From the sequence record PQ330092: 64,000 nt of DNA; one strand, given 5' to 3'. Origin of the DNA: Escherichia phage JP4. The position numbers were made by a program, and so were the translations under genes. Below are positions 26,626 to 26,938 of the stretch, in pieces. Below the pieces are notes generated by a model. The model saw nothing but the letters and a program-made list of their open reading frames with translations. It was not told the DNA's origin and searched no databases. Position 1 is the stretch's first letter; each line of letters opens with the position of its first letter.

Positions 26626-26648
26626 GAAAAATGAATTAAAAATAAATG

Positions 26649-26676
26649 TTGACAAGATAGAATGATGTGATACAAT
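26649..26676 (+). promoter_or_regulatory. Sigma70-like promoter P1 (TTGACA-16 nt-TGaTACAAT)
   Basis: Consensus -35, extended -10, read directly. Confidence 0.65.
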
Positions 26677-26741
26677 AAGCATCAGACATAAAGTTTTCAA
26701 GCGACACAAGATGTGAGTTTGAAAAAAAAGAAAAAAAGTGA

Positions 26742-26769
26742 TTGACAAGTTGAAACGATGTGATATAAT
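26742..26769 (+). promoter_or_regulatory. Sigma70-like promoter P2 (TTGACA-16 nt-TGaTATAAT), tandem duplicate of P1
   Basis: Same architecture ~93 bp downstream of P1; shared TTGACAAG...GATGTGATA.AAT. Confidence 0.65.
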
Positions 26770-26938
26770 GTTCACATCAAGACAGCAAAGAGATTTACCT
26801 TTTAAACACACGGATGATTCATGAAGTAACAAAGGAACTGATAAGTTAAATTATTTTAACACAGTTCCTTTACTTTTGCCCACGGATTGGCTATAATAGA
26901 AACTTAAACGATTTTATCCAACAAAAGGAAATATATAC

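Follow-up and report, generated by a model that had tools for sequence, protein, structure and literature searches.

The window, by which we mean the whole 64-kb stretch of DNA analysed, comes from an Asteriusvirus jumbo coliphage and is 100% identical to PBECO4 and SHEFM2K over the 2.1 kb compared. The G+C content of the genome is 34-35% and its intergenic DNA is AT-rich. One of its intergenic regions carries two promoters, P1 and P2, and a structured leader, which precede a gene for an AAA+ ATPase and a partner gene (Table 1). Compared with Pfam, the ATPase gene scores 21.3 bits for AAA (cut-off 21.2) and stays below threshold for AAA_3, and the records of related phages label its orthologue as ATPase or gp24-like. 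The upstream neighbours are virion structural genes on the same strand, and the locus lies in the middle of this virion-gene cluster. No transcript data for Asteriusvirus or RaK2 were found in the searchable literature, where RNA-seq is available only for the distant Pseudomonas phage PA5oct. These RNA-seq data are uninformative on the ATPase leader locus.

Table 1. Features at the locus, in positions of the window
Feature	Position	Strand	Details
A/T-rich tract 5' of P1 (UP-element-like)	26626..26648	+	22 nt: 91% A+T, 68% A
P1	26649..26676	+	TTGACA 26649-26654, 16-nt spacer, TG 26668-69, TACAAT 26671-26676
Hairpin in the P1 transcript, between P1 and P2	26694..26725	+	TTTTCAAGC...GTTTGAAAA, inner CACA/TGTG; followed by the P2 A-tract
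A-tract 5' of P2 (UP-element-like)	26719..26741	+	82% A+T, 73% A
P2	26742..26769	+	TTGACA 26742-26747, 16-nt spacer, TG 26761-62, TATAAT 26764-26769
Perfect 7-bp inverted repeat around the P2 -10 (candidate operator)	26757..26778	.	GATGTGA-N8-TCACATC
Box 1, 5' of the two-tier hairpin	26809..26815	+	CACGGAT (GGA 26812-26814)
Mini-ORF	26814..26849	+	MIHEVTKELIS, 11 codons + TAA; ATG 26814-26816, stop 26847-26849
Two-tier hairpin	26831..26871	+	outer stem 26831-40/26862-71, inner stem 26845-50/26855-60, loop TTAT
U-rich tail of the two-tier hairpin	26869..26878	+	TTTACTTTTG
Candidate promoter P3	26869..26897	+	TTTACT, 17 nt, TATAAT (10/12); overlaps the U-tract
Box 2, just 3' of the U-tract	26881..26887	+	CACGGAT (GGA 26884-26886)
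Shine-Dalgarno and ATG of the ATPase gene	26925..26941	+	AAGGAA
AAA+ ATPase gene ('MoxR-like', N4 gp24-like)	26939..28264	+	Pfam AAA 21.3 bits (cut-off 21.2)
Partner gene	28339..29763	+	DUF2201_N metallopeptidase-like domain + VWA-like DUF2201 (2e-35 and 7e-21)

Tandem promoters P1 and P2

P1 matches the sigma-70 consensus hexamers at 11 of 12 positions and P2 at all 12, and in both a TGa (extended -10) lies directly 5' of the -10 hexamer. Transcription is predicted to start at ~26681-26684 from P1 and at ~26774-26776 from P2, and the base composition of the tracts upstream of the two promoters suggests that they could function as UP elements. On both strands of the window, exact matches to TTGACA-N13-TGNTANAAT are found only at P1 and P2 (expected 0.01), and none of 100 shuffles contained at least two exact matches to TTGACA-N13-TGnTAnAAT.

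The sequence-only reading had reported two near-identical promoters 93 bp apart as a direct repeat. Both promoters are present as claimed and conserved across Asteriusvirus, and the direct repeat with its 93-bp spacing is real, but the term near-identical is too strong: the 48-nt repeat core has 71% identity, and an ungapped comparison of the whole 93-bp unit gives 42 matches in 93 positions. The pair may have been born of a local duplication of the ~93-bp promoter unit. The copy number of this unit ranges from one to three among isolates, with a single consensus promoter in RaK2 and a third copy in phage SP27, which arose through a 97-bp tandem duplication/insertion at P2.

Across Asteriusvirus the P1 -35 and extended -10 are kept, the P1 -10 being TATAAT in most relatives, and the P2 core is invariant; the length of the P2 A-tract differs by 1-2 nt between isolates. 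P1, P2 and the leader hairpin described below are kept in relatives with 79-89% identical flanking genes, and the sequence between the P1 and P2 motifs drifts while the motifs stay, down to a flank identity of ~80%. Furthermore, the P2 start region ACATCAAG(A/G) is common to a dispersed promoter family of this genome, TTGACA-N9/10-AGTACTG-TATAAT, in which ACATCAAGAC, found 3' of P2, also occurs. Taken together, the data support P1 and P2 as genuine sigma-70 promoters, conserved and near-consensus, with extended -10 and UP-like DNA.

We infer that the sigma-70 holoenzyme uses P1 and P2, possibly early, as the sequence-only reading had it. A phage factor instead of plain sigma-70 may recognise the promoter, as most relatives have another class than TTGACA: in Mimasvirus, Eneladusvirus and uncultivated relatives the ATPase gene has a TGAAACG / TGGGACA-N13-TGnTATAAT promoter. 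In CBB the TGAAACG-type class has been tied to DNA-synthesis genes and not to the presumed early region, which is marked by RpoD-like promoters (PMC5259590).

Two further elements are found around P2. When 26683-26880 is folded, the hairpin between P1 and P2 appears in both the MFE and the centroid structure, and its arms are largely conserved in the Asteriusvirus alignment. The inverted repeat around the P2 -10, which forms a stem in the leader fold, is invariant in the same alignment, and its GATGTGA half recurs at 26664-26670 and 26710-16.

Other candidates at the locus were rejected. Four intragenic promoter-like sites (25606, 26051, 26162 and 26498) are treated as chance matches, because the two that can be aligned, the equally good 26162 and 26498, are not conserved. 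A replication origin, consisting of a promoter and an unwinding element as in oriF/oriG of T4, was rejected as well, with no GC-skew turn at the locus and no other support.

The terminator-like hairpin in the leader

The leader reaches the ATPase start codon after 163 nt from P2 and 256 nt from P1. These lengths are outliers in the whole ECO103 4-12-1 genome, where intergenic promoter-like sites lie mostly 13-50 nt from a start codon, and a promoter followed by a terminator-like hairpin without an intervening ORF is a rare arrangement. A leader stem had been proposed from the letters as 9 bp at ~26842-26880. The stem exists, but it has 10 bp and belongs to the hairpin at 26831-26871, in which AAAGGAACTG (26831-26840) pairs with CAGTTCCTTT (26862-26871) around an inner stem of 6 bp. 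The hairpin has a folding energy of -15.2 kcal/mol (z = -4.4 vs shuffles) and recurs in the MFE and the centroid structure of the P1 as well as the P2 leader transcript.

The hairpin tail UUUACUUUUG is an interrupted U-tract with 7 U in 10 positions and the hairpin loop counts 21 nt, so that the efficiency of termination could be low. Because its loop exceeds 8 nt, the hairpin of the window was not flagged in the consensus terminator scan. The same hairpin is already annotated as a terminator in the GenBank record of G17 (ARNOLD). In relatives the hairpin tails are canonical (CTTTTTTC and CTCTTTTG) and flagged by the scan, which the orthologous hairpins of GAP32 and Yen9-03 pass. We rejected an RNase III site as an explanation of the hairpin: such a site needs a stem longer than the 10-12 bp found in Mimasvirus and Eneladusvirus.

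All related lineages examined have a hairpin with a U-tract at the corresponding place, 3' of the promoter and 5' of the start codon. The order of promoter, short 5' segment, hairpin, U-tract, ~50 nt and Shine-Dalgarno is kept in RaK2, GAP32, CBB, XbC2, Kaldavass, pEa50, BF, Yen9-03 and five uncultivated lineages. In some relatives the promoter shares positions with the upstream gene's stop codon, and nothing 3' of the hairpin was recognised as a promoter.

The cross-genus MAFFT alignment mis-registered the 5' arm because the loop lengths differ, and covariation was therefore counted on loop-trimmed sequences of 34 nt in a hand-built, structure-guided alignment. Over 13 lineages, 94.6% of the cells are paired and 4 of the 10 stem pairs show double-sided compensatory changes, while the loops vary freely. 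This level of double-sided change was reached by 1 of 500 shuffles, and pairing falls to 25-54% when the alignment registers are slid. The hairpin is also the best-conserved stretch of the intergenic region (93-98%). It thus resembles, and evolves like, an intrinsic terminator, and may terminate transcription; some attenuation of promoter-proximal transcripts is therefore plausible. The conservation of the hairpin could be wholly due to its ending of upstream late transcripts.

One might suspect that both the promoter-like motifs and the hairpin are chance products of AT-rich intergenic DNA. At a G+C content of 34-35% consensus-like hexamers are common, and 27 promoter-like matches were counted in a 6-kb region against 19 expected. 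However, only 0.01 exact matches were expected where two are found, the motifs are conserved while the intragenic look-alikes decay, and the stem carries compensatory changes. We consider chance hardly credible, since the comparative data effectively refute it.

Mini-ORF, GGA boxes and readings of the leader

The sequence-only reading had also pointed to a mini-ORF with its ATG at 26815 and to attenuation. The mini-ORF exists with its ATG at 26814, and it overlaps the 5' arm and the loop of the hairpin. In ribosome-mediated attenuation, its translation into the 5' arm would decide whether the terminator forms, and in most lineages box 1 has an AUG whose frame ends just before or inside the 5' arm. 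However, no Shine-Dalgarno was found at working distance from the mini-ORF, and its counterparts have unrelated sequences and lengths of 0 to 33 codons. A4 retains only MIH before a stop, and likewise before a stop the ORF reads MNY in RaK2, MD in pEa50 and MEA in XbC2; Yen9-03 and the lineages L032/L043 lack it, and in CBB and L031 it runs through the hairpin. Moreover, it is GGA and not AUG that stays invariant in box 1. Folding of the leader, which recovers the hairpin, gave no competing antiterminator fold, the nascent leader 26776-26861, which ends before the 3' arm is complete, having -6.7 kcal/mol (z = +0.26 vs shuffles). The mini-ORF is thus probably not a functional leader peptide, and ribosome-mediated control is very unlikely; of the attenuation proposal, what stands is that the terminator-like hairpin makes some form of it plausible.

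The block 26809-26897 has 88-100% identity vs 78-89% for the adjoining coding DNA, with the exception of box 1 and the mini-ORF (68% in A4). Within it, the motif A[U/A/C]GGA[U/A] precedes the hairpin by 10-20 nt in every lineage but L042/L044, and A[C/U]GGA is kept at the position of box 2 in every lineage examined. P3 overlaps this part of the leader; both of its hexamers are invariant in Asteriusvirus, and RaK2 has TTTACT-17-TATCAT.

We favour the reading that this is a regulatory leader of the AAA-ATPase/VWA pair in a RaK2-like jumbo phage, in which strong promoters are throttled by a leader terminator, and give it a probability of about one half. The host sigma-70 RNA polymerase would start at the tandem promoters P1 and P2 and produce transcripts with a 256-nt or 163-nt leader, respectively. 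The hairpin and U-tract would act as an intrinsic terminator, so that most initiations would yield a short leader RNA of ~100 nt (P2) or ~195 nt (P1). As the terminator lies between promoter and start codon, downstream expression needs read-through; the ATPase gene would be reached in this way only, possibly with an addition from the weaker P3. The net effect would be a throttle, either fixed or modulated by a factor, on two very strong promoters, and the same hairpin would also stop transcripts from the upstream virion-gene cluster. If P3 drives the ATPase gene, P1/P2 and the terminator form a separate unit and there is no throttle.

Such a separate unit could be an independent small-RNA gene, which we regard as unlikely; the ATPase/VWA pair would then owe its transcription to P3 or to read-through from the upstream late operon. 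The product would have ~100/195 nt here and ~55-60 nt in Mimasvirus and Eneladusvirus, with a conserved, single-stranded 5' segment that contains box 1, followed by the terminator hairpin and its U-tail. In none of the lineages does the promoter-terminator unit contain a conserved ORF. Hfq-type sRNAs typically consist of a 5' segment, a terminator hairpin and a U-tail, which fits the layout found here, and the terminators of the relatives look strong, with stems of 10-12 bp and a U6 tail. The conservation of P3 in Asteriusvirus and RaK2, and that of the leader block beyond the flanking genes, also agree with a small RNA. Against this, the Rfam scan of 26000-27500 (E<=10) gave only sub-threshold chance matches, and the 5' segment is short and has only the GGA core conserved, which even so is lost in L042/L044. 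Furthermore, the Mimasvirus and Eneladusvirus leaders showed no recognisable P3 counterpart 3' of the hairpin, so that an sRNA gene would leave the ATPase gene there without a promoter of its own.

The order of the elements might also have no regulatory meaning. The hairpin would then be the terminator of the upstream virion unit and, together with P3 and the Shine-Dalgarno, an ordinary cassette like the promoter-early stem-loops (PeSLs) of T4-like phages, to which P1/P2 would merely add transcripts that largely pass a weak terminator. The U-tract is indeed imperfect, no other terminator was found for the same-strand virion genes ahead of the hairpin at 26831-26871, and hairpin, P3 and Shine-Dalgarno follow the PeSL order (PMC4122927). 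Nevertheless, promoter and then terminator are kept in this order in every lineage examined, even where no promoter was recognised after the hairpin, the element is single-copy and not dispersed, and the hairpin is flanked by conserved GGA boxes, which a bare terminator would not need. A cassette of this kind therefore seems doubtful to us.

A regulatory leader could involve the GGA boxes themselves. In a reading that we think unlikely, the hairpin and the two GGA(U) boxes would form a riboregulatory module, either a phage sRNA or a terminator at which a trans-acting protein bound to the GGA boxes, such as host CsrA/RsmA or a phage factor, adjusts read-through. This candidate module may span Asterius-, Alcyoneus-, Mimas- and Eneladusvirus and several uncultivated lineages, and would gate the AAA-ATPase/VWA pair. 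Box 1 ACACACGGAUGA agrees at 9 of 12 positions with the CsrA consensus RUACARGGAUGU (quoted in PMC4347634). RNAs bound by CsrA/RsmA have several such GGA motifs, placed preferably in loops or across the Shine-Dalgarno. Boxes 1 and 2 lie outside loops, and neither the number of GGA in the 163-nt leader (4 vs 1.7 expected) nor that of CACGGAT in the window (7 vs 3.5 expected) is significantly raised.

The locus is a compact example of how a RaK2-like jumbo phage, with ~350 kb and mostly unknown genes, joins very strong promoters of the host type to a conserved terminator in the leader. Should the leader RNA or the GGA boxes prove functional, this would be a conserved riboregulator in a phage group with none known, and a functional leader would give a handle on when the phage needs the AAA-ATPase/VWA pair, which N4-like and many other phages also have. 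If they are not functional, there are still well-documented tandem promoters with an ordinary terminator.

Comparison with known promoter and terminator systems

Leaders can carry intrinsic terminators or attenuators, and the delayed-early genes of T4 and lambda are controlled by read-through. The hairpin and U-tract found here, after the promoter and before the first start codon, are comparable to these leaders. In contrast to known attenuators, no leader peptide, riboswitch aptamer, antiterminator fold or nut/put-like site was identified here.

The A1/A2/A3 promoters of T7 and rrn P1/P2 are closely spaced sigma-70 promoters near the consensus, all pointing the same way and preceded by A/T-rich DNA, from which the host polymerase transcribes at a high level. 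P1 and P2 are like them in being tandem and near-consensus with A/T-rich DNA upstream. The promoters of these systems are not known to fire into an intrinsic terminator that lies close behind them and before the first gene, and the present locus lies in the middle of a virion-gene cluster and not at a genome end.

The PeSLs of T4-like phages are composite terminator/promoter cassettes in which AT-rich DNA, a stem-loop, a sigma-70-like promoter, a Shine-Dalgarno and a start codon share a single intergenic region (PMC2839356, PMC4122927). The hairpin, the candidate P3 (10/12) and the Shine-Dalgarno have this order, and the promoter unit changes its copy number as in PeSL-mediated rearrangements. 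However, the stem-loop of a PeSL lies 5' of the promoter, whereas here P1 and P2 lie 5' of the stem-loop, and PeSLs are dispersed in multiple copies, whereas the 352-kb genome has the hairpin motif only once.

The closest comparison lies in the same phage supergroup. For the RaK2-like phages CBB and GAP32, RpoD-like promoters with UP-like elements and 'divergent' TGAAACG-N13-TGnTATAAT promoters were predicted, in silico only, and the leader terminator and its conservation were not described (PMC5259590). P1 and P2 share TTGACA, TATAAT and the A-tract with the RpoD-like class of CBB. The ATPase orthologues of GAP32, CBB and Eneladusvirus have TGAAACG-N13-TGgTATAAT, which keeps the register of P1 and P2 with the 16-nt spacer and extended -10. 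Compared with the CBB and GAP32 promoters, P1 and P2 have the full TTGACA as -35, and their unit occurs twice, or three times in SP27. Overall, the arrangement is well built but ordinary in kind.

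Gene neighbourhood and promoters

Between 26200 and 28300 the window matches Escherichia phages SHEFM2K, PBECO4 and others at 100% identity; these are RaK2-like Asteriusvirus jumbo myoviruses of ~348 kb. The intergenic region studied, 313 bp long, separates a hypothetical gene from an ATPase gene. The label MoxR for the latter is weakly backed: with 21.3 bits Pfam AAA barely passes its cut-off of 21.2, and AAA_3 (the MoxR family) stays below threshold. Between the ATPase and VWA-like genes there is a 12-bp hairpin (28279-28311, AAGAAGGATGCC-TAAT-GGTATCCTTCTT) with a weak T-tail, overlapped by a promoter-like match TTGACA-17-TATCCT.

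Features in and around the intergenic region (window coordinates unless stated)
Feature	Position	Strand	Description
Hypothetical gene	26245-26625	+	3' of genes annotated as virion structural proteins
P1, predicted promoter	26649-26676		TTGACA (26649-26654), 16 nt, TGaTACAAT; sequence read
P2, predicted promoter	26742-26769		TTGACA (26742-26747), 16 nt, TGaTATAAT; sequence read
Box 1	26809-26815		A[U/A/C]GGA[U/A], here CACGGAT; 10-20 nt 5' of hairpin
Mini-ORF	26814, stop 26847-26849		MIHEVTKELIS
Hairpin, outer stem	26831-26840 / 26862-26871		10 bp
P3, candidate promoter	26869-26897		TTTACT-17-TATAAT; overlaps U-tract
Box 2	26881-26887		A[C/U]GGA(U), here CACGGAT; directly 3' of U-tract
ATPase gene	26939-28264	+	ATPase or N4 gp24-like in relatives
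DUF2201_N/VWA-like gene	28339-29763	+	next after ATPase
SP27 promoter duplication	SP27 sequence about 500-600; Asteriusvirus alignment columns 163-257		from alignment

The sequence-only reading had described two strong, near-identical promoters forming a direct repeat. Both are present 93 bp apart, each preceded by an A-rich tract (68-73% A), and of exact matches to TTGACA-N13-TGNTANAAT the window has these two and no more (0.01 expected; two matches were reached by no shuffle). The repeat has a 48-nt core with 71% identity, but only 42/93 positions of the full unit match without gaps, so the duplication has diverged and is not near-identical. Nine aligned Asteriusvirus lineages all retain the two -35 hexamers and the two TGnTATAAT elements; the P1 -10 is TATAAT in most lineages. 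The same holds for the A-tracts, but the sequences between drift. A-tract length differs by 1-2 nt between isolates. In phage SP27 an extra 97 bp, inserted as a tandem copy of P2 with ~50 nt of the transcript start, brings the number of promoters to three.

Four sigma-70-like matches (25606, 26051, 26162 and 26498; 11-12/12) lie inside the two genes upstream of P1 and are probably due to chance. The two that could be aligned, 26162 (12/12) and 26498, are as good as P1 and P2 and are degraded in the same relatives, so conservation is confined to the intergenic elements.

A perfect 7-bp inverted repeat, GATGTGA-N8-TCACATC (26757-26778), encloses the P2 -10 and is invariant in Asteriusvirus. GATGTGA also occurs at 26664-26670 (P1 spacer) and 26710-26716, within a conserved inter-promoter hairpin (26694-26725, TTTTCAAGC...GTTTGAAAA, inner CACA/TGTG) that is part of the P1 transcript, abuts the P2 A-tract and has no U-tract 3' of its stem. 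The inverted repeat is a candidate operator, at which a repressor could shut P1 and P2 off.

We surveyed promoters genome-wide in the closely related, unannotated ECO103 4-12-1 genome (assembled, 352 kb), which has dozens of intergenic consensus promoters. Many belong to the family TTGACA-N9/10-AGTACTG-TATAAT-N4-5-ACATCAAGG, which concentrates in two stretches (~30-50 kb and ~318-350 kb, reverse-complement coordinates), with ACATCAAGG(G)GAG downstream. The ScaI-like palindrome AGTACTG is almost invariant and adjoins the -10, and AGTACT is frequent just 5' of the -35, a placement that suggests a factor-binding site. The second class, (G/T)GGACA-N13-TGaTATAAT-gtt, is the Asteriusvirus counterpart of the CBB/GAP32 motif TGAAACG-N13-TGnTATAAT; it is found genome-wide and in the window at about 10799-10826 and 29811-29838, the latter 3' of a clean terminator (29776-29797). 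P2 is a mixture: its register and extended -10 are those of the second class, its -35 is perfect, and its start region, ACATCAAG, is shared with the first.

The promoter-to-start distance in ECO103 is usually 13-50 nt, making the 163/256-nt leader an outlier. Further tandem pairs exist there, one likewise 93 bp apart, none of them with both promoters at ≥11/12 plus TG and A-tract. Few promoters there lead into a terminator-like hairpin without an ORF in between, and the remaining examples are of lower quality or have the hairpin overlapping the promoter. Five near-identical copies of TTGACT-ccggtcagtccctttgc-TATTAT-atattcattgagagata (33199, 40058, 43532, 46799 and 49551, reverse-complement) lie unusually far, 168-362 nt, from the next start codon and may be a repeated non-coding element in a consensus-promoter-rich region.

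The leader hairpin and its conservation

The leader stem proposed earlier exists, with 10 bp, at coordinates shifted by about 10 nt. Together with a 6-bp inner stem it has an energy of -15.2 kcal/mol (z = -4.4), and TTTACTTTTG follows directly 3' of it. The hairpin is single-copy in the genome; whether the leader transcript begins at P1 or P2, both its MFE and its centroid fold contain it.

We compared RaK2 (Alcyoneusvirus), GAP32, CBB and XbC2 (Mimasvirus), Kaldavass, pEa50, BF and Yen9-03 (Eneladusvirus), and five uncultivated IMG/VR lineages. The order promoter, short 5' segment, hairpin, U-tract, ~50 nt, Shine-Dalgarno (SD) and ATPase is common to all. RaK2 has a single TTGACA-16-TGaTATAAT promoter with A-tract, the uncultivated lineages L031 and L032/L043 have TGGGACA-N13-TGaTATAAT, and the remaining relatives have TGAAACG/A-N13-TGgTATAAT, which in GAP32 overlaps the upstream gene's stop codon. 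A -35/-10 pair is annotated at the equivalent spot in the Yen9-03 GenBank record. The TGAAACG-type motif is the 'divergent RpoD-like' class reported upstream of DNA-synthesis genes in CBB and GAP32. The presumed early region is marked by another class, RpoD-like promoters with UP-like elements (PMC5259590). Given these classes, the perfect TTGACA, A-tract and duplication look derived in Asteriusvirus and partly in Alcyoneusvirus.

In Mimasvirus and Eneladusvirus a stem of 10-12 bp encloses a loop of 4-6 nt, the tail is CTTTTTT or CTCTTTTG, and the terminator scan flags the hairpin on the + strand (-13.8 to -17.8 kcal/mol). The loop is larger in Asteriusvirus, RaK2 and L031/L032, at 15-22 nt, and has an inner stem of its own; the G17 record already lists the Asteriusvirus hairpin as an ARNOLD terminator. 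In a hand-built, loop-trimmed alignment of 13 distinct lineages 94.6% of cells pair, with double-sided changes at four of the ten pairs: 3 (AU/GC), 4 (GC/AU), 5 (CG/AU/GC) and 10 (AU/GC). Four such pairs were reached in 1/500 shuffles, and pairing drops to 25-54% in slid registers. The double-sided changes and both controls indicate that the hairpin structure is under selection.

Within Asteriusvirus, identity is 88-100% over 26809-26897, which spans box 1, hairpin, tail, box 2 and P3, compared with 78-89% in flanking coding DNA; the exception is box 1 and the mini-ORF in A4 (68%). Box 2 was found in every lineage compared and box 1 in all except the uncultivated L042/L044. Box 1 (ACACACGGAUGA) agrees at 9/12 positions with the CsrA SELEX consensus RUACARGGAUGU quoted in PMC4347634. 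The leader contains 4 GGA against 1.7 expected, which is no significant excess, and CACGGAT shows no enrichment in the window either.

Mini-ORF, mechanism and known systems

The 11-codon mini-ORF is real, although its start had been placed at 26815, and there is no SD at working distance from it. Its counterparts are MIH* (A4), MNY* (RaK2), MDTIEKH* (GAP32), MD* (pEa50), MEA* (XbC2), MM* (L042) and a 27-33-codon frame through the hairpin in CBB and L031; none is present in Yen9-03 and L032/L043. At its start it is the GGA that is conserved, rather than the AUG. When the 3' arm is left out, the nascent leader folds no better than random (z = +0.26), which leaves no antiterminator. With no SD, an unconserved frame and no antiterminator fold, we rejected leader-peptide attenuation.

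The data support a chain of two strong host-type promoters (one to three by isolate), a long leader, a conserved intrinsic terminator, and then the SD and the ATPase/VWA genes. The most economical mechanism for it is partial termination, constitutive or factor-modulated: some transcripts would end as a short leader RNA and others read through into an mRNA, and the hairpin would in addition stop transcription arriving from the virion genes upstream. P1 and P2 may mainly make a small RNA or mainly feed the operon; the searchable literature yielded no transcript data for the RaK2-like group.

The original observation is thus confirmed with corrected coordinates, and its interpretation partly supported, for strong promoters and a leader terminator but not for a mini-ORF mechanism, with early timing a possibility. 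What is new is that the whole RaK2-like group shares the promoter-terminator-gene order, hairpin structure and flanking GGA boxes, and that the promoter unit differs in copy number. The parts are of familiar kinds, the terminator being already annotated (G17) and the promoter classes already predicted in relatives. P3 is invariant in Asteriusvirus and kept as TTTACT-17-TATCAT in RaK2, with no counterpart recognised in genera other than these two; hairpin and P3 together resemble the terminator/promoter order of PeSL cassettes (PMC4122927).
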